DNA of 64,000 nt from Candidatus Omnitrophota bacterium (GCA_030674475.1 JAUSCZ010000042.1:11139-75138); one strand, 5' to 3'. Shown: positions 1-57,523, counted from the first letter of the stretch. The notes: generated by a model not told the origin, from the sequence alone. Translations and numbers: made by a program.

Positions 1-473
1 ATGAAACCAACCAGGATTTGGAGGGGATATTAGAGATTGCCCAAAAGGTCTCTAAATTAAGATTAGAGTCAGCGGGCCGTCCGGCCCAGGTGCGCCTAAG
101 CATATCATTTTTTGTGCCCAAGCCGCATACCTTTTTTGAACGCGAAAAGATGGAGAAGCGTGATAAGTTAAAAGAAAATATTTTATATCTAAGGGATAAG
201 GCCAGGAAGATCTCTAAAAAAATCACCCTGGATTTTCACAATTTAGAAACCAGCGTCATTGAGGCAGTTTTTTCCCGCGGGGATAGGTCTTTGGGAGAGG
301 TTATCTTGCGGGCTTATAATAATGGCTGCCTGTTGGATGGCTGGCCGGAGCATTTCAAGCCTGAACTTTGGCTTAAGGCTTTTAAAGAATCAGGGAAAGA
401 TTTTGATTTTTATCTCAGGGAAAGAAGCGCGGATGAGATTTTGCCCTGGCAGCATATTGATGTCAGCGCTTAA
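1..473 (+). CDS. C-terminal fragment of a radical SAM family protein (TIGR03960-like); 5' end lies outside the window
   Basis: The reading frame is open back to position 1. The tail contains ...ILPWQHIDV..., which matches the conserved C-terminal region of the B12-binding-domain radical SAM group as I remember it. The assignment is by memory only. Confidence 0.45.
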   Translation, partial: ETNQDLEGILEIAQKVSKLRLESAGRPAQVRLSISFFVPKPHTFFEREKMEKRDKLKENILYLRDKARKISKKITLDFHNLETSVIEAVFSRGDRSLGEVILRAYNNGCLLDGWPEHFKPELWLKAFKESGKDFDFYLRERSADEILPWQHIDVSA

Positions 474-17876: not shown

Positions 17877-19127
17877 ATGTCAAGGATAGCCATAGTTGAG
17901 GGGATAAGGACGCCTTTTGTTAAGGCCTGGACGGATTTTGGGGATATTCCGGCCCAGGAATTGGGGCGGATAGCGGTTAGAGAGTTGTTGGAGAGGACCA
18001 GTTTAGAGCCGAAGTTAGTGGATGAGGTAATCTTCGGTTCAGTAGCCAATCCTCCGGAGGCGGCTAATATCGCTCGGGTGATTTCCCTGCTTGCGGGGAT
18101 ACCGAAAGAAAAACGGGCTTATACCGTTTCCCGTAACTGCGCCTCGGGTTTTGAGGCGGTTACCAGCGCGGTGGAAAAGATTTTGACCGGGATGGATGAG
18201 GTGGTGATTGCCGGCGGGGCGGAGTCAATGTCCAATATCCCGATGTTTTATCCTCCCCAAACCGCCAAGCTATTCTTGAAACTGGCTAAAGCCAGGAATC
18301 CTTTAGAAAGAATTTCTCTATTCTGGGAATTGCTTAAACCCAGTCGTCTGCTAAAGCCGGTGATTGGCCTGCAATTAGGCCTGACTGACCCGGTCTGCGG
18401 CCTGAATATGGGCCAGACTGCCGAGATACTGGCTAAGGAATACGGGATAACCCGCAAAGAGCAGGATGAGTTCGCCTTAGTCAGCCATAATCGGGCGCTG
18501 AGCGCCAGGGAAAGGCTGAAAGAGGAGATTGTCCCGGTTTTTGTCCCTCCGAAATACGAAAAGACAGTTACCGATGATAACGGGGTGAGGGAGAAGATTA
18601 CTTTAGAAGATTTAGCCAAACTTAAACCTTATTTTGACCGCTATTCGGGAACCGTAACCGTAGGCAATGCCTGTCAGGTTACTGACGGGGCCTGCGCTTT
18701 GTTACTGATGAAGGAAGAAAAGGCCAAAGAATTGGGTTTTACGCCTTTAGGATTCATCCGCTCCTATGCCTATTGTGGCGTTGAGCCCAGCAAAATGGGC
18801 ATCGGCCCGGCCTTTGCCGTCCCGGAAGTCTTAAAGAAAGCCAGCCTGAAATTAAGCGATATAGAGTTATTAGAGATCAACGAGGCCTTTGCCGCTCAGG
18901 TAATTGCCTGCGAGAGGCATTTGGAGGCCGCTAATATAGGAAAGCTCAATCGCGAGATACTTAATGTCAACGGGGGAGCCATTGCCCTGGGCCACCCGGT
19001 AGGGGTTACCGGCAGCCGCTTGATTCTGACTCTGCTTAAGGAAATGCAGCGCCGGAACCAGCATTTAGGCCTGGCCTCGCTCTGCGTAGGCGGCGGTCAA
19101 GGCGCGGCAGTGATTGTGGAGCGTTAA
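17877..19127 (+). CDS. Acetyl-CoA C-acyltransferase (thiolase)
   Basis: Active-site NCASGFEAV. C-terminal GLASLCVGGGQGAAVIVE thiolase signature. Confidence 0.9.
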   Translation: MSRIAIVEGIRTPFVKAWTDFGDIPAQELGRIAVRELLERTSLEPKLVDEVIFGSVANPPEAANIARVISLLAGIPKEKRAYTVSRNCASGFEAVTSAVEKILTGMDEVVIAGGAESMSNIPMFYPPQTAKLFLKLAKARNPLERISLFWELLKPSRLLKPVIGLQLGLTDPVCGLNMGQTAEILAKEYGITRKEQDEFALVSHNRALSARERLKEEIVPVFVPPKYEKTVTDDNGVREKITLEDLAKLKPYFDRYSGTVTVGNACQVTDGACALLLMKEEKAKELGFTPLGFIRSYAYCGVEPSKMGIGPAFAVPEVLKKASLKLSDIELLEINEAFAAQVIACERHLEAANIGKLNREILNVNGGAIALGHPVGVTGSRLILTLLKEMQRRNQHLGLASLCVGGGQGAAVIVER

Positions 19128-19160
19128 TGTATATGTTATAATTTAAGCGGAGGTGAGATT

Positions 19161-19379
19161 ATGAAAGTAGCGGATATTCCTAAGATTTCTCGTTTAAGTA
19201 CGGCAGAGAAAATTTTATTCGTTGAGGATGTGTGGGATTCTATCGCTTCTAAAGAGCGTATTCCTATGCCTGAATCGCACAAGGCTGAACTGGACCGGCG
19301 ATCAGCAAAATATCAAAACCATGGCGGACGATTGCTCTCTTTAAAAGAACTGCAAGCGCGGATAGAAAAAAGAAAATAA
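19161..19379 (+). CDS. Putative addiction-module antitoxin (TIGR02574-like), partner of the ParE/RelE gene downstream
   Basis: 72 aa. MKVADIPKISRLSTAEKILFVEDVWDSIA... is typical of the small antitoxins found upstream of ParE/RelE genes. Its stop is 1 nt before the toxin start. Confidence 0.7.
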   Translation: MKVADIPKISRLSTAEKILFVEDVWDSIASKERIPMPESHKAELDRRSAKYQNHGGRLLSLKELQARIEKRK

Positions 19380-19380
19380 T

Positions 19381-19692
19381 ATGCGATATTTGTTGTCATT
19401 TTTGCCCGAAGTTGAAGAAGACACTGTTTCCGCGTATATTTGGTATGAAGAAAAATCCAAAGGTTTGGGCGAGGAATTCTTAAGAGCCTTTTATGCCAGT
19501 GCCGCGGAAATAGCCCGAACCCCCAATCTTTATCCCAAGATCTATAAAAACTTTCATCGTAAGCTACTTAAGCGATTCCCTTATGTTGTCTATTTTCTTA
19601 TTGAGAGTGGATCCGTTATAGTTTACGGCTTGTTCCATTGCGCCCGGAATCCGTATTCAATACAAGGAAAGATTGATGATAGGCCTTCTTAA
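19381..19692 (+). CDS. parE: ParE/RelE-family toxin
   Basis: 103 aa. N-terminal RYLLSF.PEVEEDTVSAYIWY, and overall ParE-like size and pattern. Confidence 0.7.
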   Translation: MRYLLSFLPEVEEDTVSAYIWYEEKSKGLGEEFLRAFYASAAEIARTPNLYPKIYKNFHRKLLKRFPYVVYFLIESGSVIVYGLFHCARNPYSIQGKIDDRPS

Positions 19693-19725
19693 TTACGCAA
19701 AAGAGATAAGGATGAGAGTTGACCT

Positions 19726-19792
19726 ATAGCTAGTCGTGGTGATGATCGTAACTAAGGGGTTAATTTCAAGTTTCAAGGCCTGACCCCTAAAG
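19726..19792. repeat. Approximately 67 bp repeat ending in the hairpin ggggttaatttcaagtttcaaggcctgacccc (copy 1)
   Basis: It recurs almost identically at 20652-20720. The terminal ~30 nt is the reverse complement of the fadJ start region (21879-21907) and of the fragment at 20547-20575. Confidence 0.8.
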
Positions 19793-20135
19793 TTCCCTGC
19801 TTTAATTAACTCTCAAACCCAACAAGCAATTGCACAAGAACAGGCTAATCAAGCAACCTTAAATAGAATACACGATATTTATCAAAGAAGCGCTGAAAGA
19901 CAACAGCAAAATATACAAACCTTTCAACAGAATATTGCTGATTGGAACGCTAACTGGTAAAAGAGCCATAATCAAGTAGGAACAAGATGGAATCCTATGC
20001 ACGTTACTGTCAATGATAAGAAAGAATGATAAGTTTAAAGGTGGAAAAGCAGATGTTTCTTATAAAATATGCATATGAATAAAAATAAACGGTTGTCATG
20101 CCTGTTTTTAAATTTTAGACGAAAGAGGCAAGGAT

Positions 20136-20450
20136 ATGGGAATGTCAGATAAAACACACGAAATTATAAATAAATTATATGTATTTGTAGATACCGGTAA
20201 TAAAAAACTGATAGAAAAGTATACATTAGAAGAAATGATCCAGGTGAAGTGTCACTATAAACCATATAACTCGAAGTTGCCAGACTTAACTCCAATCATA
20301 GATAATAGAATAAACGAACTTAAAGAGATTAATCTCGCAAAAAGGAAGAAAAGAGAAAAATGGTTAGATAGATTATTTGGTTTTATTTCTGGTATGGCAG
20401 TTACTTTAGCGAGCGTTTATTTAAAAGGTTGTTTGAAATTAGAAAAGTAA
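20136..20450 (+). CDS. Hypothetical small protein with a C-terminal TM helix, inside the low-GC insertion
   Basis: 104 aa, lysine-rich, with a C-terminal hydrophobic segment FGFISGMAVTLASVYL. The local sequence is AT-rich. I recognise no domain. A 21-codon hydrophobic mini-ORF (MNKKQLIVVWVVGGVMARRRK) follows at 20452-20517. Confidence 0.35.
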   Translation: MGMSDKTHEIINKLYVFVDTGNKKLIEKYTLEEMIQVKCHYKPYNSKLPDLTPIIDNRINELKEINLAKRKKREKWLDRLFGFISGMAVTLASVYLKGCLKLEK

Positions 20451-20546
20451 AATGAATAAGAAGCAATTAATAGTCGTTTGGGTTGTGGGTGGAGTTATGG
20501 CAAGGAGGCGGAAATGAGAAAAGTATTTGCTTTATTCAGAGAAAAA

Positions 20547-20575
20547 GGGGTCAGGCCTTGAAAGTTGAATTTATC
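20547..20575 (+). repeat. Diverged duplicate of the fadJ 5' end / RBS region
   Basis: ggggtcaggccttgaaagttgaatttatc matches ggggtcaggccttgaaacttgaatttatc at 21879-21907. Confidence 0.75.
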
Positions 20576-20651
20576 TTAACAATTCTGTTGTTTAGGATAC
20601 AATACAGTTATGGTCTGTCCTATAGATTGCATAAGAAGGGTGCTTTTATCA

Positions 20652-20720
20652 TATAACTAGTCGTGGTGATAATCGTAACTGAGGGGTTAATTTCAAGTTT
20701 CAAGGCCTGACCCCTAAAAG
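20652..20720. repeat. Copy 2 of the ~67 bp hairpin repeat
   Basis: Near-identical to 19726-19792. Confidence 0.8.
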
Positions 20721-20986
20721 CGTTTGCCGCAGGCGGATGCGCCTACGGCGCAAGAAAGTAGTTGGTAGTTAAAGTTTTTCGCTGTAATCAAAAAAAGCGC
20801 GAGGGCATAAATGAAAAAGAGGATGTCTCTGCAAGATAAGGCCTATGCGGCATTAAAAAAAGCGGTGCGGCAGGTTGTTCAACAGCATAAAAAAAACAGG
20901 TCGTCCTCTCGCGGTGTGGGAAAATGGCAGGGTAGTCCGCATTTCTCCTTACACGGTTAAATAATAGGGACAGCGGCCATTTTAAG

Positions 20987-21045
20987 AAGATGAAGCGCCG
21001 GAATCTGCACTTAGGCCTGGCCTCGCTGTGCGTAGGCGGCGGACG
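20987..21045 (+). pseudogene. Remnant of a thiolase 3' end, diverged from the resident thiolase
   Basis: It translates to KKMKRRNLHLGLASLCVGGGRN, versus KEMQRRNQHLGLASLCVGGGQG at the true thiolase C-terminus (19044-19098). The two differ at several nucleotides, so this is not an exact tandem copy. Confidence 0.6.
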
Positions 21046-21101
21046 GAACTTGACAAAACAATTATTTTGTGATACACTTTGTAATACAGGAGGCGATAAC
21101 A

Positions 21102-21389
21102 ATGTCCATTACTAAATCACACAACACAAAAGAGAAAATTATTACTGCTAGATGCGATACCCATGTTAAAGAAATTCTGTATCTTCTTAGTCAGTCAGAG
21201 CGCCTTTCTATGTCTGATGTTATAGCTAAAAGCATTCTCGAATATCATAAAAGACACTTTCCTGATCAGTCTTTTTCTGAAGAAGAGCAAGAACTATTTG
21301 GCAGACATAGCAGCTCCAAAGGTGATTTATCTATAAACAGGAAACGGTACTTAAAGGAGATGTTGAGTGGAAAACATGGCCGTAATTGA
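21102..21389 (+). CDS. vapB: Ribbon-helix-helix (CopG-like) antitoxin, VapB-type
   Basis: The ATG at 21102 is preceded by AGGAGG. ARCDTHVKEILYLLSQSERLSMSDVIAKSI is an RHH motif. It overlaps the PIN toxin gene by 23 nt. The six-frame ORF starts earlier, at 21069. Confidence 0.6.
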   Translation: MSITKSHNTKEKIITARCDTHVKEILYLLSQSERLSMSDVIAKSILEYHKRHFPDQSFSEEEQELFGRHSSSKGDLSINRKRYLKEMLSGKHGRN

Positions 21390-21798
21390 TGCCGGGCCTT
21401 TAATTGCCTTATTTGATAAATCCGATACGTATCACCAGAAGGTCAAGCATAGGCTTGAGGAATATCGTAAAGATGTCCAGGGAAGACTTATTACCACTTG
21501 GCCTATAATAACAGAAGTTACTTACATTTTGGAAGCACACGTTCATCTCGAAGCCCAGTTAGACTTCTTAAAATGGATTATTCTGGGTGGATTAGAAATG
21601 TTTGATCTAACCAGGGAGCATCTATCCAGGATAATCGAATTACAAAAGAAATATTCTAACCTTCCTATGGACTTTGCCGATGCTACTTTGCTTATTGGAG
21701 CTGAGGCCTTAGATACAACTAAAGTCTTTTCTCTTGATAAAGACTTCTCAATTTATCGCATGCTGGGCAAAAGACACATGGAGAATTTAATGAAATGA
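21367..21798 (+). CDS. vapC: PIN-domain toxin, VapC family
   Basis: AVIDAGPLIALFD, DFADATLL and FSLDKDF carry the conserved acidic residues of a PIN nuclease. Confidence 0.85.
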   Translation: MENMAVIDAGPLIALFDKSDTYHQKVKHRLEEYRKDVQGRLITTWPIITEVTYILEAHVHLEAQLDFLKWIILGGLEMFDLTREHLSRIIELQKKYSNLPMDFADATLLIGAEALDTTKVFSLDKDFSIYRMLGKRHMENLMK

Positions 21799-21890
21799 GA
21801 AAAAGATTTATAAATTGGTCATCAGTCATCCCTATCTACCCTGCCTACCGGCAGGCAGGCTGTTAAGGTTAATAAGAAAGGGGTCAGGCC

Positions 21891-24014
21891 TTGAAACTTG
21901 AATTTATCCTAAGCCTAAAAATAGAAAACGGATTTGCCGTCATAGAATTTGACCAGCCGGAGGCTAAGGTGAATGTCTTGTCTTCGGCGGTGATGAAGGA
22001 ATTGGAGGGGATAATCGCACAGTTAGCCTCCAAGCCGGATTTAAAAGGACTGCTCGTAGTAAGCAAGAAACCGGATATTTTTATTGCCGGGGCGGATATT
22101 AAGGAGATTGAGAATATTGCTTCCAGTTCCGAGGCCGAGGTTAAGGCTCAAGAGGGGCAGAAGATATTTAATGCTTTAGAGAAACTGTCTATTCCATCTA
22201 TTGCCTTAATTAACGGGGCCTGTCTGGGCGGAGGATTAGAGCTGGCTTTGGCTTGCGACTACCGTTTAGCCTGTTTCGGGGATAAGGTTAAGATTGGCCT
22301 GCCGGAGGTAAAGCTGGGGATAGTCCCGGGTTTTGGCGGCACCAAGCGCCTGCCGCGTTTGGTGGGACTGCAAAAAGGTTTACAGTTAATCCTGGCTGGA
22401 GAGGTGGTTTCTGCCGGTGAAGCTTTAAAGATTGGATTGGTTGACGGCTTGGCCAGTCAAAACCGCTTGCTTGAGGAAGGTATTGAGTTTCTTAAAAGCC
22501 ATCCCCATAAACGCCGGGGATATAAGCCCAGGCTTAAAGGCTGGCTGAATAAATTTCTGGACCGGAATTCTCTGGGACGGTCTATCTTGAAAGATCAAAC
22601 CCGGAAGTTGGTCTTGAAAACTACTAAAGGCCAATATCCCGCGCCGTTAAAGGCCCTGGAGGCAGTTGTTGAAAATTATAGCTCTTCTTTAGAAAGGGCC
22701 CTAGAGAGAGAGGCCCAGGTATTTGGGGAATTGGTAGTCGGGGAAATCTCCAAGAATCTGATTTCGCTATTTTATTTAACTGAGAAATATAAGAAAACCA
22801 AATGGAGTCAGGCCCAGCCTAGTAAGATTGGTAAGTGCGCGGTTTTGGGGGCGGGAGCAATGGGCGGAGGCATTGCCCAGTTATTTAGCGCTTATGGATT
22901 GCCGGTGCGGATGAAAGATTTAAACTATCCGTCATTGGGCCGCGGCCTAAGACAGGCCAGAGAGGTCTATGATTACGCGGTTAAGAAGAAAAAGCTCAAA
23001 AAAAATCAGGCGGTATTTGGAATGGGACTGATTTCTTCGACTTTGGATTACAGCGGATTTGCCAATGCGGATTTAGTGGTGGAGGCGGTGGTTGAGGATA
23101 TGAAGATAAAGCAGGCGGTCTTTGGTCAGCTTGATTCGGTGGTCAGTCCGCGGACGATCATAGCCTCAAACACCTCTTGTTTATCGGTTGAGCGGATGTC
23201 GGAGGGAGCGCGAAATAAAGAGCGGGTAATCGGGATGCACTTTTTTAACCCGGTGCACCGGATGCCTTTGATTGAGCTGATCCGCACCCCCCATACCAGC
23301 GAGGAGACAATCAGCACGATGGTTGAGTTCTCCCGGAAATTAGGCAAGACCCCGATTGTAGTCAGGGATTCCTGCGGCTTCTTGGTAAATAGAATCCTTC
23401 TGCCCTATCTTAACGAGGCCGGATTTATCCTGGAGGAAGGCATAAGTTTTGAGCGAATAGACAAAATTATGTTGGATTTTGGTATGCCAATGGGGCCGTT
23501 TACCTTAATGGATGAAATCGGATTAGATGTAGGCTATAAGGTGGCTTGTTTGTTAGAGGAAAATTTAGGGGCCAGGTTAAAGGTGCCCCAGATTTTCAAG
23601 AAAGTCTACGAGAAGAAATGGTTTGGCAAGAAAACCGGCCAGGGGTTCTACATTCATAGGACAAAAGAAAAAGAGCCGAATAAAGAGGTGAATGGTTTAT
23701 TACCGAATTCGCGAAAAGCTGTTATGAGTGACGAAGATATTTTAAGCCGGATGCTTTATCGGATGATTAATGAGGCGGCCTTTTGTTTAGAGGAAAAGGT
23801 CTGTAATGAGCCTGCGGATGTGGATATCGGGATGATTATGGGCACCGGTTTTCCGCCGTTTCGCGGCGGGCTTCTGCGCTACGCGGATAAACTTGGCGCC
23901 CAAAGAATCGCGCGAGAATCGCGTGAATTCGTGGATAAATTTAAAGCCGAGCGTTTTAGTCCTTGCGGTTTCTTGGTTGAATTGGCCAAGATAAACGGAA
24001 AATTCTATAGATAA
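21891..24014 (+). CDS. fadJ: Fatty-acid oxidation complex alpha subunit (enoyl-CoA hydratase plus 3-hydroxyacyl-CoA dehydrogenase), FadJ/FadB-like
   Basis: N-terminal crotonase fold. Central Rossmann GAGAMGGGIAQ. C-terminal 3HCDH domains. 707 aa. The TTG start lies inside the hairpin repeat. Confidence 0.9.
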   Translation: MKLEFILSLKIENGFAVIEFDQPEAKVNVLSSAVMKELEGIIAQLASKPDLKGLLVVSKKPDIFIAGADIKEIENIASSSEAEVKAQEGQKIFNALEKLSIPSIALINGACLGGGLELALACDYRLACFGDKVKIGLPEVKLGIVPGFGGTKRLPRLVGLQKGLQLILAGEVVSAGEALKIGLVDGLASQNRLLEEGIEFLKSHPHKRRGYKPRLKGWLNKFLDRNSLGRSILKDQTRKLVLKTTKGQYPAPLKALEAVVENYSSSLERALEREAQVFGELVVGEISKNLISLFYLTEKYKKTKWSQAQPSKIGKCAVLGAGAMGGGIAQLFSAYGLPVRMKDLNYPSLGRGLRQAREVYDYAVKKKKLKKNQAVFGMGLISSTLDYSGFANADLVVEAVVEDMKIKQAVFGQLDSVVSPRTIIASNTSCLSVERMSEGARNKERVIGMHFFNPVHRMPLIELIRTPHTSEETISTMVEFSRKLGKTPIVVRDSCGFLVNRILLPYLNEAGFILEEGISFERIDKIMLDFGMPMGPFTLMDEIGLDVGYKVACLLEENLGARLKVPQIFKKVYEKKWFGKKTGQGFYIHRTKEKEPNKEVNGLLPNSRKAVMSDEDILSRMLYRMINEAAFCLEEKVCNEPADVDIGMIMGTGFPPFRGGLLRYADKLGAQRIARESREFVDKFKAERFSPCGFLVELAKINGKFYR

Positions 24015-24067: not shown

Positions 24068-24172
24068 CGTAGCGGTTGCCGCCCGCCTGCTCGCCTCGCG
24101 GCGAAGCCGAGGGCCGGCAGGCAGGTAAGGCAACGATATTACCGGGTCAGCGGACGCTGACCCCTACACGCT
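24068..24172. repeat. Intergenic palindrome-containing repeat (gtagcggttgcc...ccggcaggcagg...gggtcagcggacgctgacccc)
   Basis: Its reverse complement recurs at 52539-52615. The core cctgcctgccggcaggcagg is also found at 21829-21850 and 37249-37270. Confidence 0.8.
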
Positions 24173-30729: not shown

Positions 30730-30999
30730 TAAAAAATTACCAAAAGGAGACAGGAAAACCTGGAGCCAAATAATTTGGTAAAAATAGTGGAAGAAAAAAC
30801 CACAGCAGTTGACAATACCGGATAGATATTGAAGGACGAATAAGCGCCTTTTTAAAGATAGATAAAAGCGCTCATAGATTTGTCTGAGCGCTTTTTTTGT
30901 TTCTTTAGAGAGCTAAAAAGATAAATTTCAATCGTTCTTTGAGAATTAAATAGCCAAGCCCACTCGTCCCGGCATTATGCCGGGCAAAGAGCTTTATTT

Positions 31000-32578
<1,579 letters not shown>

Positions 32579-36439: not shown

Positions 36440-36556
36440 GGAGCATTCTTACCGGAGGGGCCACACCCGTTCCCATTCCGAACACGGTAGTTAAGACCTC
36501 CAGGGCCGATGGTACTTTAGTAGTAATGCTATGGGAGAGTAGGACGATGCTCCGGC
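36440..36556 (+). rRNA. rrf: 5S ribosomal RNA
   Basis: ggagcat...ccgaacacggtagttaag...atgctcc terminal helix. About 117 nt. Confidence 0.85.
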
Positions 36557-38631: not shown

Positions 38632-40773
38632 ATGCGTAAAGACATTTTAGGGGATATTCGTTATTTAAAAGGCGTGGGTCTTAAGCGGGCGGCGCTTTTT
38701 AATAAGTTGGAAATCAGCTTAATTGAAGATCTGCTCTATTATTTCCCTCGCCGTTATGAAGATAGGACTGTAATTACCGATATCGGCAGTCTCGCCCCGG
38801 GAGAATATCAGACAGTGAGGGCAAGAATTATTAGAGTCAAAGAGCGCCCTGTTTTTAGGCAGAGAGGTTTTAGGATTTTTGAGGCTGTGGCGGAGGATTC
38901 AACCGGGAGGCTGTCCTGTGTCTGGTTTAATCAGCCGTATTTAAAAAACTATATTATGATTGATAGGGAGGTTATGCTTTTTGGCAAGGTCGGCCTTTAC
39001 GGGAACAGCCCGCAAATGCAGAATCCGGAATATGAAGTTATGAGTTCGCGCTCATCAGACGGGGCAGAACCAAATGGTCAATCGAACGACAGTCTTAATT
39101 CCGCCAGGATAATTCCGGTTTATTCCCTGATCGAGGGTTTAAGCCAAAGGATGTTTAGGCGCCTTATAAAAACCTGCCTGGATGAGTATCTGCCCGGAAT
39201 TATAGATATCCTGCCTTATGACATCAGACAACGTAATCATTTGCTCAACATAGCTTCGGCAGTCCTGAATATGCATTTTCCTCAGGATGCCCTTCGCCAG
39301 GAAGAGGCCTATAAGAGGATTATCTTTGAAGAGTGTTTCTTGATGCAGTTGATTTTTGGCCTTAAACGTTATAAGGCGGATAAAATAATAGGAACCGCCC
39401 ACAGGCTGAATGAGGATTTTTTAAAGAGCTTTGAGGAGGGTCTGTCTTTTAAATTAACTGATTCTCAAGATAAGTCAATAGCCCAGATAAAGAAAGATAT
39501 GTCTTCCCCTAATCCGATGTACCGGCTTCTGGAGGGAGATGTCGGCTGTGGTAAAACCATAGTGGCTTTATATGGCTGTATGATTTCAGTATCCAACGGC
39601 GCGCAGGCGGCCTTTATGGCTCCCACTGAAATTCTGGCCCAACAGCACTTTCGGGTTATCAGCCATCAGCTTTCGGCTCTCTCCGCCGCAGGCGGATGCG
39701 CCTACGGCGCAAGCCATCGGCTAAAGGCAGGGCTCCTGACCAGCAGTGTGCCATTAAAGGAAAAACAAAAAATATATAATGAAATAAAAAATGGGACGAT
39801 AGATATACTTGTGGGAACCCACGCCTTGCTTCAGGAGGAGGTGGAATTTAAAGATTTAAGTTTGGTGGTGATAGATGAACAGCATAAGTTCGGAGTGTAT
39901 CAGAGAATGGGCCTGCTGACCAAGGGTCTTAATCCGGATTGTTTGATTATGACCGCGACCCCGATACCGCGCACCCTGGCTTTGACTATTTATTCTGATT
40001 TAGACATTTCCACTATTGATGAGCTTCCTTCCGGGAGAATCCCGGTTAAAACTTATCTGGCCGGCGAAGATAGGCGGGGGTGGGTGTATGATTTTATCCG
40101 CCAGAGCCTTCAATCCGGCCGTCAGGCTTATATCGTATACCCAATAATTGATGAGTCAGAAAGATTGGAGCTGAAATCAGCCAAGGCGATGCATAAAGAC
40201 CTGAAGAAAAATATTTTTAGCGATTTTAAGGTAGGGCTTATCCACGGGAAGATGAAACAGAAAGAGCGGGATAAGGTTATGGCCTCTTTTAGAAAGGGCG
40301 AGATTGATCTTTTGGTTTCTACCGTGGTGATTGAGGTGGGCATAGACGTGGCTAACGCCTCGGTGATGGTCATCGAGCATGCCGAGAGATTCGGCTTATC
40401 CCAATTGCATCAACTGCGCGGCAGGATAGGAAGGGGAACACACCAGTCGCATTGTATTTTGATTAGTGATGCCGCCGGCGATGAATCCGGACAAAGGTTA
40501 AAGGTAATGGTTGAAGAGTCTGACGGTTTTAAGATTGCCGAACGGGATTTGGAAATCCGGGGGCCGGGTGAGTTTTTTGGGGCGCGCCAGCACGGCATAC
40601 CGGAACTCAGGGTTAATCCTCTGGAGAATATGGAGTTGCTGCAGGCGGCTAAAAAAGAAGCCGATGCCTTAATCAAAAAGGATCCTCGGCTTGGCCTTAG
40701 GCAGAATACGGGATTAGCTGATATCTTACAGAGAAGATTCCCGGATTATGAAAAAATAGCCGAAGCCGGATAG
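38632..40773 (+). CDS. recG: ATP-dependent DNA helicase RecG, with a short in-frame repeat-derived insertion
   Basis: Wedge/OB N-terminus, helicase motifs GDVGCGKT and DEQHKFGV, and a TRG region. Between motifs I and II, the 29-mer gccgcaggcggatgcgcctacggcgcaag (39685-39713) encodes AAGGCAYGAS and recurs intergenically at 20726-20754. Confidence 0.9.
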   Translation: MRKDILGDIRYLKGVGLKRAALFNKLEISLIEDLLYYFPRRYEDRTVITDIGSLAPGEYQTVRARIIRVKERPVFRQRGFRIFEAVAEDSTGRLSCVWFNQPYLKNYIMIDREVMLFGKVGLYGNSPQMQNPEYEVMSSRSSDGAEPNGQSNDSLNSARIIPVYSLIEGLSQRMFRRLIKTCLDEYLPGIIDILPYDIRQRNHLLNIASAVLNMHFPQDALRQEEAYKRIIFEECFLMQLIFGLKRYKADKIIGTAHRLNEDFLKSFEEGLSFKLTDSQDKSIAQIKKDMSSPNPMYRLLEGDVGCGKTIVALYGCMISVSNGAQAAFMAPTEILAQQHFRVISHQLSALSAAGGCAYGASHRLKAGLLTSSVPLKEKQKIYNEIKNGTIDILVGTHALLQEEVEFKDLSLVVIDEQHKFGVYQRMGLLTKGLNPDCLIMTATPIPRTLALTIYSDLDISTIDELPSGRIPVKTYLAGEDRRGWVYDFIRQSLQSGRQAYIVYPIIDESERLELKSAKAMHKDLKKNIFSDFKVGLIHGKMKQKERDKVMASFRKGEIDLLVSTVVIEVGIDVANASVMVIEHAERFGLSQLHQLRGRIGRGTHQSHCILISDAAGDESGQRLKVMVEESDGFKIAERDLEIRGPGEFFGARQHGIPELRVNPLENMELLQAAKKEADALIKKDPRLGLRQNTGLADILQRRFPDYEKIAEAG

Positions 40774-52023: not shown

Positions 52024-52457
52024 GGGGGTGAAAGGTTTCGACTTAGACGAGTTGGGTATCAGTGGCATGCCGCGGACGCAGGGAAGGCCGCGATAACAAA
52101 CCTTGCAAAAGTCAAACGCTAAAAACGAGAATGATCGTTTATTAAAAACAGTTGAGGGTTATGTTGCTCCATTTTTTGTTGCAACACCCCGCCCTGTTTT
52201 TACAGCGCCAGTCTTCGCTCACTAATCTGAGCGAAGCCCCTTACCGTTTAGCCTAAGAAACGGCGTAGGGCAAATTAGATAGGCTGGTTTCCTGCCCTGC
52301 CCTGGGACAGGGAATGAGAGCTATAAAAGGGATGACCCTTAGGGAATCACGGTTATCGGAGGCCCTGAGGATGACGGTTAAAAAGGTAACCTACGCATTG
52401 TAGAGGCTGGTATTTGACTGTTTGAGGACGCGAGTTCGATTCTCGCCACCTCCACCA
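52024..52457 (+). ncRNA. ssrA: tmRNA (SsrA)
   Basis: Lies directly downstream of smpB. The 5' end gggggtgaaaggtttcgac pairs with the 3' end ...ggacgcgagttcgattctcgccacctccacca. This is a tRNA-Ala-like acceptor with a G3:U pair and encoded CCA, plus a ggcatgccg pseudoknot region. Palindromic hairpins follow at 52458-52530. Confidence 0.8.
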
Positions 52458-52538: not shown

Positions 52539-52615
52539 GTGTAGGGGTCAGCGTCCGCTGACCCTGTAATATCGTTGCCTTACCTGCCTGCCGGCAGGCA
52601 GGCGGCAACCGCTAC
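52539..52615. repeat. Inverted copy of the palindrome-containing intergenic repeat
   Basis: Reverse complement of 24068-24172, with a ~30 nt indel. Confidence 0.8.
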
Positions 52616-54739: not shown

Positions 54740-54835
54740 CCTATCCCCTCCTTGGTAAGGAGGGGATTAGCAAAGGTGAGCCGGGAAGGGTAAGAAATCC
54801 TCCCCTTGGCAAGGGGAGGCGGGGAGGGGTTAAGA
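54740..54835. repeat. Hairpin repeat family cctcccctt-NNN-aaggggagg followed by a G-rich tail (2 copies)
   Basis: atcccctccttggtaaggaggggat and cctccccttggcaaggggaggcggggaggggt. Related copies lie at 55316-55358 and 57431-57508. Confidence 0.8.
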
Positions 54836-54915
54836 AAGTAGCTTTGTAGTCAATGAATGAATTTACTCACTCCAAACTTCAAAGAACCAAACTAAATAAT
54901 CGGAGGGATATAAAG

Positions 54916-55365
54916 ATGGATAAGCGCAAAAAAAGAATATTGTTGGTGGATGATGAGCCGGATTTTGTGGAGTTGATAAAAAGCAGATTAGAGGCCAATG
55001 AATACCAGGTGGTAACCGCCAAAAACGGCAAAGAGGCCCTGGATTTGCTTAAATGCCTGACCTGCGATAAGTTTGACGCGATATTGCTGGATATCCTGAT
55101 GCCGGAGATAGATGGGATAGAAACCTTGAAAAGAATACGCCAGCAGGATAAGGAGCTTCCGGTGTTTATGCTGACGGCTTATTCGGACAAAGGGATGTTT
55201 GAGCAGGCCAATAAAGCCGGGGCCTCGGGATATATTGTTAAAACCAGCGACCTTCAGCAGGAAATCAATAATATTAATAATATCCTCAGGCTGGCCCCGA
55301 AGTATCACCCGGCGGAGAAATCCTCCCCTTACCAAGGGGAGGTAGGGAGGGGTAAGGAAAAATAA
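54916..55365 (+). CDS. Response regulator (receiver) with a short repeat-encoded C-terminal tail
   Basis: ATG at 54916 with a GGAGGG RBS. ILLVDDEPD. Phospho-acceptor in ILLDILMPEIDG. The last ~14 codons (SSPYQGEVGRGKEK) are encoded by a copy of the hairpin repeat. The six-frame ORF starts at 54853. Confidence 0.8.
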   Translation: MDKRKKRILLVDDEPDFVELIKSRLEANEYQVVTAKNGKEALDLLKCLTCDKFDAILLDILMPEIDGIETLKRIRQQDKELPVFMLTAYSDKGMFEQANKAGASGYIVKTSDLQQEINNINNILRLAPKYHPAEKSSPYQGEVGRGKEK

Positions 55366-55736
55366 TGGCTAAAAAGCGCTTGTTGTTGGTTGATGATGAA
55401 GTAGAATTGGTGGAGATGATAAAATTTCGTTTAGAGGCATCCGGCTATGAAGTGCTCACCGCTAATGACGGCCAGCAGGCCTTAGAGATTGCCCGCAGGG
55501 AAAAGCCGGACCTGATTATCCTGGATGTAATGCTTCCTAAAATGGATGGATATAAAGTGTGCGGTTTGCTTAAAAAGGATTCCCGGTATGCCCATATCCC
55601 GGTAATGATGTTTACGGCCAAGGCCATGGATGCCGATCTGAAATTAGGCCAGGAAGTTTCTGCCGATGCCTATCTGACCAAGCCCTTTGAGCCCAAAGTG
55701 CTTTTGGAGAAGATAAAAGAATTAGTCAAAGAATGA
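55365..55736 (+). CDS. Single-domain response regulator (PilH/CheY-like)
   Basis: LLLVDDEVE, phospho-acceptor in IILDVMLPKMDG, and LTKPF. Confidence 0.85.
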   Translation: MAKKRLLLVDDEVELVEMIKFRLEASGYEVLTANDGQQALEIARREKPDLIILDVMLPKMDGYKVCGLLKKDSRYAHIPVMMFTAKAMDADLKLGQEVSADAYLTKPFEPKVLLEKIKELVKE

Positions 55737-57430
55737 CCCGACAGAAGAAAACTTTAAGCGAGATGCTGGTAGAGCTTGGACTTTTGAGCCCGGAGCAGGC
55801 CAGAGAGGCTAAGAAGGAAGAAGAGCTGAATAGACAGCCCTTTAGGAAAATAATTGTCCAGAAGGGTTTTATCAGCGAGGAAGACCTGATTTCCTTTATG
55901 GCCAGCAATATGAACCTGCCCCAGATTGAACTGGAGAACTACATAATTGACCCCAAGATAATTGAACTTATCCCGGAGGGCTTGGCCCGAAAGCATCAGA
56001 TTGTTCCCCTTTTTAAAATCGCCAACACCTTGACTTGCGCTATGTTTGACCCCTTGAATATTTTTGCCATTGATGAACTGCGCAATAAAACCGGCTTTGA
56101 TATTGAAGCGGCAGTGGCCACCGAGAAGGAAATCAAAAGGGCCCTGAACGAATATTACAGCGCCAAAGGCGGGGTTGAAGAGATTGTTAAGGCCATTGAT
56201 AAAGAAAGGCTGGGGCTTAAAGAAGGAGAGGAGTTAGAGCTTAAAAAACTCCAGCAGATTTCCGGTGAGCCGCCGATTATCCGGCTGGTTAATCTTACCA
56301 TTATGCAGGCGGTCCACGATGGCTCAAGCGATATCCACATTGAGCCGGAGGAGGAAGTTTTAAAGGTGAGATACCGGATTGACGGCATACTCCATGACCA
56401 GTCTTCTTTACCTAAATACCTGGAATCAGCGGTGGTCTCGCGGATAAAAATACTCTCCAGCCTGAATATTGCCGAGCGCCGCGCCCCCCAGGACGGCCGT
56501 TTCCAGATGAAGGTGGAAAACCGCCAGATAGATATCCGGGTTTCAGTAATGGCCACAGTCTACGGGGAAAATGTGGTGATGCGCCTGCTGGATAGAAGCA
56601 ATACGGTTATGGGTTTACCCGATTTAGGCTTACCTAAAGAGGCCGTTAAAACTTATGAAAAGCTGATTCAGAGTCCGCATGGGATAATCTTAGTAACCGG
56701 GCCTACCGGAAGCGGGAAGACCACTACCCTTTATACTTCGCTGAATGTTATTAATTCTCCGCAAAAGAATATCGTTACTATCGAGGATCCGGTAGAGTAT
56801 CATCTTAACGGAATTCGTCAGATTCAGGTGGAATCCCGGTCCGGGGTGAGTTTTGCCACTGGTTTAAGGTCAATCTTGCGGCAGGATCCGGATGTAATAA
56901 TGGTAGGTGAAATCCGGGATAAGGAGACCGCGGAGATTGCTATTCAGGCGGCCCTTACCGGCCATCTGGTCTTTTCCACCCTGCATACTAATGATGCCTC
57001 CGGGGCAATAACCCGGTTGATGGATATGGGGATTGAGCCGTTTTTGATCACTTCTTCATTGAGCGCGGTTCTGGCGCAACGTTTGGTCAGGGTGGTCTGT
57101 AAGGATTGCAAGGAAGAATATGCTCCCTCCGAAGAGGTATTAAAAGAAATAGGGTTAGAGAGCAATCAGGATTCGCGGGTCAAATTCTACCGGGGAAAAG
57201 GCTGTCTAAAATGTAAGGACACCGGCTACAAGGGCCGGATAGGAATTTATGAGCTTATGGTTATGGATGAGAAACTGCATAATCTGATTGTGGCCAAGGT
57301 TTCCAGCGAGGAAATAAAAAGATATTGCCGGTCTTCCGGCGGCATAAGCTTAAGGCAGGATGGCTTAGAAAAAGTCAAGGCCGGAATAACCACCATTGAA
57401 GAAGTTTTGCGCCTAACTCCAAAGGAATAG
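55733..57430 (+). CDS. pilB: PilB/GspE-family type IV pilus assembly ATPase, copy 3
   Basis: N-terminal MshEN-like motifs (TLSEMLVELGLLSPEQAREAKKEE, FRKIIVQKGFISEEDLISFMASNM). Walker A GPTGSGKTTTLYTS. LTGHLVFSTLHT. CKDC...CLKC. Confidence 0.9.
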   Translation: MTRQKKTLSEMLVELGLLSPEQAREAKKEEELNRQPFRKIIVQKGFISEEDLISFMASNMNLPQIELENYIIDPKIIELIPEGLARKHQIVPLFKIANTLTCAMFDPLNIFAIDELRNKTGFDIEAAVATEKEIKRALNEYYSAKGGVEEIVKAIDKERLGLKEGEELELKKLQQISGEPPIIRLVNLTIMQAVHDGSSDIHIEPEEEVLKVRYRIDGILHDQSSLPKYLESAVVSRIKILSSLNIAERRAPQDGRFQMKVENRQIDIRVSVMATVYGENVVMRLLDRSNTVMGLPDLGLPKEAVKTYEKLIQSPHGIILVTGPTGSGKTTTLYTSLNVINSPQKNIVTIEDPVEYHLNGIRQIQVESRSGVSFATGLRSILRQDPDVIMVGEIRDKETAEIAIQAALTGHLVFSTLHTNDASGAITRLMDMGIEPFLITSSLSAVLAQRLVRVVCKDCKEEYAPSEEVLKEIGLESNQDSRVKFYRGKGCLKCKDTGYKGRIGIYELMVMDEKLHNLIVAKVSSEEIKRYCRSSGGISLRQDGLEKVKAGITTIEEVLRLTPKE

Positions 57431-57508
57431 GTAATCCTCCCCTTACCAAGGGGAGGCGGGGTGGGGTAAGAAATCCTCCCCTTACCAAGGGGAGGCGGGG
57501 TGGGGTTA
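57431..57508. repeat. Two tandem copies of the cctccccttaccaaggggaggcggggtggggt hairpin repeat
   Basis: Two ~38 bp copies with near-identity, with the downstream pilC RBS AGGAGG immediately after the second copy. Confidence 0.85.
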
Positions 57509-57523
57509 AGAAGGAGGTTTTGT

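Follow-up and report, generated by a model that had tools for sequence, protein, structure and literature searches.

Several kinds of region in which small gene units gather beside resident genes have been described in bacterial chromosomes. Integration hotspots flanked by core genes, which Oliveira, Touchon and Rocha have reportedly analysed, and islets rich in toxin–antitoxin (TA) genes are variable regions of lower GC content between conserved genes and are exchangeable via homology in the flanks. In the accretion of integrative and conjugative elements (ICEs) and cis-mobilizable elements (CIMEs), as for ICESt1/ICESt3 at fda and for islands at tRNA genes, direct repeats corresponding to the upstream gene's 3′ end lie between successive units, and the resident gene stays intact. 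In integron arrays, clusters of attC sites lacking integron integrases (CALINs) and the TA-rich Vibrio superintegron, small cassettes share one orientation, TA modules are frequent among them, and imperfect palindromes separate some of them. Traits of all these systems occur together in a 64,000-nt stretch of DNA from a Candidatus Omnitrophota bacterium (hereafter the window, to whose full length coordinates refer unless another locus is named), between a thiolase gene and the gene for a fadJ/fadB-type enoyl-CoA hydratase/3-hydroxyacyl-CoA dehydrogenase (fadJ; Table 1). With moderate confidence, the thiolase–fadJ junction of this clade is read here as a recombination hotspot with small low-GC, mostly TA, cassettes, whose arrays change by recombination among variant alleles. 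The hotspot type itself is known; what is new is an operon-internal TA cassette array that lacks an integrase and is bounded by remnants of the flanking genes and by small palindromes. The literature on Omnitrophota TA systems and hotspot cassettes yielded nothing about the thiolase–fadJ locus.

Compared with core-gene-flanked hotspots, the array lies inside an operon, its apparent ancestral gap is 0–5 nt, its co-oriented cassettes are tiny (0.3–1.3 kb), and pieces of the flanking genes recur between them. Compared with ICE/CIME accretion, no integrase was found, the repeat limits are heterogeneous, the units are 10–100 times smaller, and 5′ pieces of fadJ occur too. In contrast to integrons and CALINs, the array is without IntI, attC cores or a palindrome at every boundary, and its TA cassettes have promoters of their own.

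In the window, 2,763 nt lie between the thiolase stop codon (19127) and the TTG start of fadJ (21891). The insert (19128–21876; 2,749 nt) has a GC content of 0.38, falling to 0.32 in a low-GC block (19792–20543), as against 0.52 in the thiolase gene, 0.47 in fadJ and 0.45 in the whole window, so that the low-GC insertion splitting a β-oxidation operon, described in an earlier note made from the DNA alone, is confirmed (38% GC against 47–52% in the flanking genes). In 16 loci of relatives (L005, L007, L038–L051) with thiolases at most 81% identical to that of the window, the thiolase–fadJ gap is 0–80 nt and often consists of just the stop and start codons, as the earlier note had proposed to check. 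In the close clade, defined by a thiolase at least 85% or a fadJ at least 84% identical to that of the window, the junction is filled by 1.2–5.3 kb in nine of nine loci (the window, L004, L006, L008, L035, L036, L037, L052, L124). This distribution indicates that the junction is ancestrally cassette-free. Cassette content (Table 1) is wholly different between genomes whose thiolases are 85–94% identical, and every cassette gene called in 11 loci lies on the operon strand. The idea of a hotspot of repeated cassette recombination gains from this variability across the close clade and from the recurrence of junction duplicates in six other assemblies. Gene calling gave no recombinase in the L124 array or in the 10 kb flanking it on each side; apart from the IS110 transposase of L004, the open reading frame (ORF) lists of the other arrays show none, and none of ten mid-size ORFs of the window, all housekeeping genes, has a Phage_integrase match.

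Copies of the last 25–110 nt of the thiolase gene, most of which reach the stop codon, separate the cassettes, as found by all-versus-all BLAST of the hotspots and by alignment; the stretch that recurs corresponds to the last ~95 nt of the resident gene (19036–19127). Direct repeats of the target-gene 3′ end between units, as in ICEs and CIMEs, are present in the window and in six other assemblies (L052, L008, L124, L036, L006, L116); a cognate integrase and a uniform crossover point, as in those elements, were not found (window ORFs and surroundings of L124; the starts of the copies vary). The left limits of the copies are heterogeneous, at about −95, −78, −65, −47, −40 and −25 relative to the stop codon. 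In addition, a 5′ piece of fadJ lies at L008 3954–3986, after a cassette that in L004 adjoins the real fadJ. Cassettes thus bear pieces of former left, and sometimes right, neighbours, as expected if variant alleles of the locus were joined.

The thiolase fragment of the window (20982–21042) is 89% (88.5%) identical to the resident 3′ end (19036–19096; E = 8e-17, repeat search and BLAST) and 90% identical to the L008 allele, so it is marginally nearer to L008. Relative to the resident gene it has four synonymous changes, two residues as in other lineages (MKRRNLH as in L052; MQRRNQH in the resident) and one E-to-K change at its left edge. By this pattern the fragment is neither a recent nor a decayed copy of the resident gene, and the synonymous changes and other-lineage residues support the previous argument against a recent local tandem duplication.

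A left junction in which ..GGGACAGCGGCCATTT (..CCATTT) runs directly into TAAGAAGA is common to five copies in four genomes, and the codon state AAGAAG at this junction occurs in none of 16 resident alleles. The left partner is E4 (GGGACAGCG), half of a hairpin whose complete form lies directly 3′ of fadJ in the cassette-free relative L048, and the junction looks like one old illegitimate join that was later propagated. A second junction type, the repeat E2 followed by a thiolase copy from about −65, is common to L008 and L124. Because junctions are shared and AAGAAG is absent from the residents, the units would have been inherited and reshuffled and not all captured independently. Gene order is circularly permuted, the small gene, the thiolase copy and the 104-aa gene being arranged differently in the window, L008, L115 and L116: thiolase copy, zeta-like gene and small gene in L008; small gene, thiolase copy and 104-aa gene in L116; and 104-aa gene, small gene and thiolase copy in the window. 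Shared junctions and permuted order together point to repeated homologous exchange among repeat units. Clustering of the thiolase copies with the resident alleles was uninformative, given the shortness of the sequences and probable gene conversion.

Palindromic repeats form the second class of boundary. Self-comparison recovered all the repeats listed earlier, far beyond chance: the 67-nt pair 19725–19791/20652–20718 is 96% identical (E = 2e-25), the fadJ start 21877–21912 is 94% identical to 20544–20579 (E = 3e-10; both by repeat search and BLAST), and 21879–21909 is 94% complementary to the final 31 nt of each 67-nt copy. A 24-nt core (AGGGGTCAGGCCTTGAAACTTGAA) occurs four times in 64 kb, all at the hotspot, and in none of 100 shuffles. 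The 67-nt piece had been taken for a hairpin; alone it folds no better than shuffled sequence (z = −0.5 and +0.7), which rules out a self-standing hairpin, and it is instead the right end of a 173-nt imperfect palindrome (20546–20718) that folds at −68 kcal/mol (z = −6.8; 0 of 200 shuffles equally stable). The two arms of this element, 28 nt each, are 93% complementary, and the 114 nt between them are partly self-complementary. The window contains one full copy, the right 67 nt and the left 36 nt. An Rfam scan of the whole window found rRNA, tRNA and transfer-messenger RNA (tmRNA) only, the repeats having no match.

The element, termed E1 or HP, belongs to a family with the sister motifs E2 (GGGGTCAAGCCTCAAAACTCCAAAATAG...) and E3, whose members start with (A/T)AGGGGTCA and consist of ~28-nt units, single or in inverted pairs. 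E1 arms are also found at other array positions in L008, L035, L037, L004 and L115; the L008 copy is a 65-nt hairpin (z = −3.0) whose two arms, read from the sequence, agree at only ~17 of 24 positions. Related palindrome copies in other genomes likewise sit in the thiolase–fadJ hotspot, and a scan of viral contigs for the E1 core gave no match. E3 flanks VapBC in L004 as an inverted pair of ~70–130 nt (1309–1438/2216–2345), which adjoins an IS110-family transposase gene (35–1183). IS110-family elements are known for targeting palindromic repeats.

As a short non-coding element with terminal inverted repeats (28 nt) and a long-hairpin fold, the 173-nt palindrome resembles a miniature inverted-repeat transposable element (MITE) or a repetitive extragenic palindrome (REP) or its paired form (REPIN), and REP-like families occur elsewhere in the window; it differs from these in that within the 64 kb its copies are seen in the hotspot only and that no target-site duplication, transposase or REP-associated tyrosine transposase was identified (no clear duplication around the full copy). 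The pdif modules of Acinetobacter plasmids, which are Xer-dependent, offer a further likeness: in them, small modules, some of them TA pairs, lie between ~28-nt sites whose orientation alternates. In contrast, the hotspot sites lie at a chromosomal operon junction and have neither similarity to dif nor an XerC/XerD-like 11-6-11 dyad; no internal dyad was read in the arm AGGGGTCAGGC-CTTGAA-ACTTGAAATTA, and the absence of dyad symmetry in the arms rules out a Xer/pdif origin. An integron is ruled out by the lack of IntI (array, L124 ± 10 kb, ten window ORFs) and of attC core motifs, neither RYYYAAC nor GTTRRRY being read at the palindrome ends AGGGGTCAGG...CCTGACCCCT.

Palindrome copies adjoin truncation breakpoints at three places in the window, which fits insertion followed by recombination or adjacent deletion. 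The further suggestion of the earlier note, that the hairpin may be the recombination site, is not established by this: cassette limits are heterogeneous, several have no palindrome, and at many a thiolase-end copy stands in its place.

The start of fadJ itself contains a piece of the element. The left-end copy carries a ribosome-binding site (RBS; AAAGGGG), the TTG at 21891, which presumably serves as the fadJ start, and the first six to seven fadJ codons, and homology of the window fadJ to that of relatives begins only at 21909–21915 (BLAST and N-terminal alignment). The N-terminus reads MDKAL.. or MNTNS.. in E1-bearing genomes and MQN... in cassette-free relatives. On this comparison, the RBS, start codon and first six codons of fadJ are derived from the palindromic element. 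The reverse direction is disfavoured because E1 occurs elsewhere in relatives with differing fadJ starts and because homology begins where it does. Of the claim that the 67-bp element is the reverse complement of the fadJ start, the complementarity thus stands (94% over 31 nt) and the origin from fadJ falls, since the comparison of fadJ among relatives rules out that the repeat was copied from the fadJ start.

The following route is proposed. A new arrangement would arise by a crossover in a conserved flank, or in a copy of a flank, with an illegitimate or out-of-register join on the other side, and each event would leave a partial thiolase 3′ end before the cassette or a fadJ 5′ piece behind it. 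The leftover copies and the palindromic repeats E1/HP, E2, E3 and E4 would then act as portable homology through which ordinary homologous recombination could add, remove, duplicate and reorder cassettes, so that a dedicated recombinase would be unnecessary. In the window, two palindrome copies would have come to adjoin the truncated genes of a three-gene unit and a third to be fused in frame to fadJ. Only co-oriented, terminator-free insertions would persist, because fadJ and the acyl-CoA dehydrogenase gene behind it, downstream of the array, probably need transcription through the array; for such read-through speak the promoter-like site before VapB and the finding of no terminator-like site on the + strand between thiolase and fadJ in the window. 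TA modules would persist because their loss is costly. Both the recombination route and read-through transcription are what we infer from the layout.

If so, the locus is a natural example of an operon junction that, once gap-free, came to accept selfish TA modules without fixed limit and with neither flanking gene inactivated. In it, scars of past recombination can supply the homology for later rearrangements, and a small palindromic repeat was recruited to start the translation of a core metabolic gene. The genetics of Omnitrophota has hardly been studied, and the locus could be a tractable marker for strain-level recombination and for a TA mobilome shared with plasmids.

Several points weigh against this reading. 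Recombination is deduced from arrangement, no event having been directly observed, and E elements occur within the 64 kb at the hotspot only, which bears on both their mobility and their role. Several thiolase copies begin near one coordinate (about −92 to −95), which could be a preferred crossover site and not a sign of common descent. An orientation-specific site-specific system would equally be expected to leave a dozen or more distinct cassettes all in one orientation, and in the assembly graph the 927-nt unit between the 67-nt repeats (low-GC block and palindrome) could also be resolved into a circle of its own or into a tandem repeat.

An integron-like site-specific system, with a recombinase encoded elsewhere, circular cassettes and the thiolase 3′-end unit or the 173-nt palindrome as its att site, is unlikely. 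It would account for the direct repeats of the target-gene 3′ end between cassettes, as in tandem accretion at att sites, for the single orientation of all cassettes, for the attC-like placement of palindromes between them, and for the 2-kb insert of L036, which is wholly flanked by direct thiolase-end copies; the 927-nt unit is bounded by 67-nt direct repeats, and in the k-mer assembly the same 23-mer stands at both of its ends, compatible with a circle. Against it, the thiolase copies vary in their left limits, a given cassette changes both its neighbours and its limits from genome to genome, the limits of VapBC are without a repeat in four contexts, the palindrome ends have no attC cores and the arms no Xer-type 11-6-11 dyad, and the arms of the L008 copy match poorly. 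Neither a tyrosine nor a serine recombinase was found in any array, within 10 kb of the L124 array on either side or among the ten window ORFs.

A self-propagating variant is thought rather improbable: cassettes with a portable ~60–115-nt thiolase 3′ copy (with an E4 or E2 half-hairpin) would target the thiolase stop or an earlier copy, through RecA or an unrecognised recombinase acting in trans and through circular intermediates like the 927-nt unit, and the host operon would supply transcription. Were a dedicated mechanism found, the locus would represent a new kind of cassette-capture system.

Purely local events in one lineage (tandem duplication, decay and unrelated insertions, with no exchange between genomes) are very unlikely to explain the arrays. 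Features private to one genome do point to duplication or gene conversion: the insertion GGGGAGTGATTG is confined to two thiolase copies of L052, and the 5.3-kb array of L124 includes a tandem-like 174-nt direct repeat (14601–14774/14800–14973; 96.5% identical) that begins with E2. Against this explanation, the other-lineage residues and synonymous differences of the window fragment are not those of random decay, identical junctions stand beside different cassettes in different genomes, cassette content differs wholly among genomes with 85–94% thiolase identity, and VapBC is more alike between genomes than the core genes are.

An assembly chimera of co-existing strains differing at the locus is scarcely credible. 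In its favour, the DNA comes from a metagenome, repeats interrupt the contigs at k = 31 and placement of the 927-nt unit hinges on repeat resolution. Against it, Logan contigs confirm every non-repeat junction exactly, the fragments have diverged and adjoin unique sequence, and the same architecture recurs in seven or more assemblies of other studies, including a 524-kb contig. Three contigs of Logan run SRR13727527, a separate k-mer assembly that may or may not share reads with that of the window, match the window exactly and end only inside repeats; this agreement and the architecture of the 524-kb contig argue against an artefact.

Table 1. Features of the thiolase–fadJ junction in the window and in compared loci (L004 to L124); aa, amino acids; RHH, ribbon-helix-helix; HTH, helix-turn-helix.
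Feature	Locus	Coordinates	Strand	Remarks
Thiolase gene	window	17877–19127	+	Pfam Thiolase_N + Thiolase_C
ParDE-like cassette	window	19128–19724	+	antitoxin 19161–19379, RelE/ParE-like toxin 19381–19692; starts right after thiolase stop
Partial palindrome copy, right 67 nt	window	19725–19791	+	R arm 19761–19788; 96% identical to 20652–20718
Low-GC block, internal fragment of three-gene unit	window	19792–20543	+	88% identical to L115 3461–4185 over 742 nt
Full imperfect palindrome HP, E1 family	window	20544–20718	.	arms L 20546–20573, R 20688–20715
Small-gene unit	window	20719–20981	+	88% identical to L037 9888–10142
Thiolase 3′ partial copy, codons for KKMKRRNLHLGLASLCVGGG	window	20982–21045	+	right side cut by VapBC module
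VapBC-type module	window	21046–21807	+	promoter-like site 21050–21078, antitoxin gene 21102–21389, PIN toxin gene 21367–21798
Spacer with short GC-rich palindrome cctgcctaccggcaggcagg	window	21808–21876	.	resembles part of REP-like repeat after fadJ and tmRNA gene
Palindrome left-end copy, 36 nt	window	21877–21912	+	94% identical to 20544–20579; fadJ start
fadJ/fadB-type gene	window	21891–24014	+	Pfam ECH_1, 3HCDH_N, 3HCDH; chimeric 5′ end
Thiolase copies	L052	2218–2334, 2950–3039, 3217–3237, 4027–4130		three long, one short
Thiolase copies	L008	4029–4097, 5041–5105, 5850–5870		
Thiolase copies	L124	11371–11429, 11446–11524, 11978–12068, 15602–15648		
Thiolase copy	L036	8293–8378		directly before fadJ; direct copies bracket whole 2-kb insert
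Thiolase copy	L006	5395–5452		
Thiolase copy	L116	about 63–145		
Cassette content	L008			ParD-like antitoxin alone, 62+150-aa pair, Gp49/HTH pair, zeta-toxin-like ATPase + 50-aa gene
Cassette content	L004			IS110 transposase, VapBC as in window, 62+150-aa pair
Cassette content	L006			RHH/RelE-like pair, 156-aa zinc-ribbon protein
Cassette content	L052			397-aa ATPase, RHH/RelE-like pair, ParDE-like pair as in window
Cassette content	L036			PIN + 96-aa gene, pilin-like gene
Cassette content	L037, L035			other small genes
Cassette content	L124			complete 5.3-kb array on 524-kb contig

The first cassette of the window had been described as a ParE/antitoxin pair. The antitoxin matches PF09720 (49 bits) and TIGR02574; the match of the toxin to ParE is weak (PF05016, 19.4 bits against a cut-off of 23), and it has no NCBIfam match. 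The stop and start codons of the two genes overlap (TAATATG). A 91% identical unit, with the pair kept and a ~25-nt thiolase-end remnant before it, lies at L052 3238–3834, and L008 carries the antitoxin alone.

The low-GC block contains all or part of three genes, complete in L115 (208, 104 and 153 aa). Gene 1 (~19798–19962) is a 5′-truncated remnant of the 208-aa lipoprotein gene with a premature stop, cut beside the R arm at 19792; gene 2 (20136–20450) is the intact 104-aa gene; and gene 3 (20453–20536) comprises the first ~25 codons of the 153-aa lipoprotein gene, cut by the L arm at 20544. No family in Pfam or NCBIfam matches the 104-aa protein, whose homologues are found in a few metagenome contigs only. 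The earlier description of an orphan protein in AT-rich DNA is therefore right as to the composition and wrong as to the orphan, the block being an internal piece of a three-gene unit whose two ends are missing, with palindrome copies next to both cuts. The 62+150-aa pair of L008 and L004 likewise gave no family in Pfam or NCBIfam.

The small-gene unit holds a GC-rich mini-palindrome (20726–20754), a 50-aa gene (20811–20960) and the motif ATAGGGACAGCGGCCATTT (20964–20982), which forms the left junction of the window thiolase fragment; the same junction is present at L008 5013, L052 2220 and L052 4030. The 50-aa gene, whose product has no Pfam or NCBIfam family, is intact at L008 5681–5833, L037 9964–10116 and L124 16372–16524 and is frameshifted in the window by an extra A in a homopolymer (A8 versus A7), which may reflect a sequencing error, a pseudogene or slippage. 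The 29-nt mini-palindrome (GCCGCAGGCGGATGCGCCTACGGCGCAAG) recurs identically at 39685–39713, where, unlike the non-coding hotspot copy, it lies in frame inside a 713-aa RecG-like ORF and encodes AAGGCAYGAS.

The last cassette had been called an RHH/VapC pair. The toxin has a PIN domain (Pfam, E = 1e-11), and an exact look-up of its 140-aa reading matched nothing because the gene was called with a GTG start. The RHH partner is not borne out: the 95-aa protein encoded upstream has no match in Pfam, NCBIfam or the PDB. Its gene overlaps the toxin gene by 23 nt and travels with it in six contexts, so that 21102–21798 has the arrangement of a VapBC module, a PIN toxin gene after an overlapping small upstream gene, with a putative antitoxin. 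The promoter-like site before VapB reads TTGACA-17-TACACT with a TG motif. The limits of VapBC, which are the −35 box at 21050 and the stop codon at 21800, are sharp and recur unchanged in L004, where the module is 95% identical (fadJ DNA, 88%), elsewhere on the chromosome in a different Omnitrophota metagenome-assembled genome (L117; 92%) and on TrfA/integrase plasmid-like contigs (L118–L121; 83%). No repeat was found at its limits in four contexts; the conserved unit is, as far as these limits tell, the functional module itself. Occurrence at another locus and on plasmid-like contigs suggests that the cassettes are drawn from a local mobile gene pool. The small contigs L118–L121, whose VapBC has ~80% protein identity, also encode a TrfA replication initiator, a 205-aa tyrosine recombinase and other TA pairs, and are probably plasmids from the same habitats.

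Other repeats are dispersed in the window. A REP-like imperfect palindrome of ~100 nt that ends TAGGGGTCAGCG..CGCTGACCC occurs after fadJ (24071–24170, + strand) and after the tmRNA gene (52539–52600, − strand), with 98% identity over 57 nt. At its end it is similar to the beginning of the hotspot E elements, and a piece of it, CCGGCAGGCAGG, lies at 21845–21860 in the VapC–fadJ spacer. Such dispersed REP-like repeats suggest that the presence of small palindromic repeats is typical of the genome as a whole. Between the genes of a type II secretion/type IV pilus cluster (54767–57523), repeats of 45–81 nt (AGAAATCCTCCCCTT..CAAGGGGAGGCGGGGAGGGG; families D1 and D4) are found. A 65-nt inverted repeat (29516–29580/37150–37214; 100% complementary) brackets the whole rRNA operon (16S 30998–32576, tRNA-Ile, tRNA-Ala, 23S, and 5S ending at 36555) and could allow its inversion. 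The tmRNA gene (52024–52457) has a predicted tag peptide, EGYVAPFFVATPRPVFTAPVFAH, that is long and ends unlike the common ALAA-type motif.

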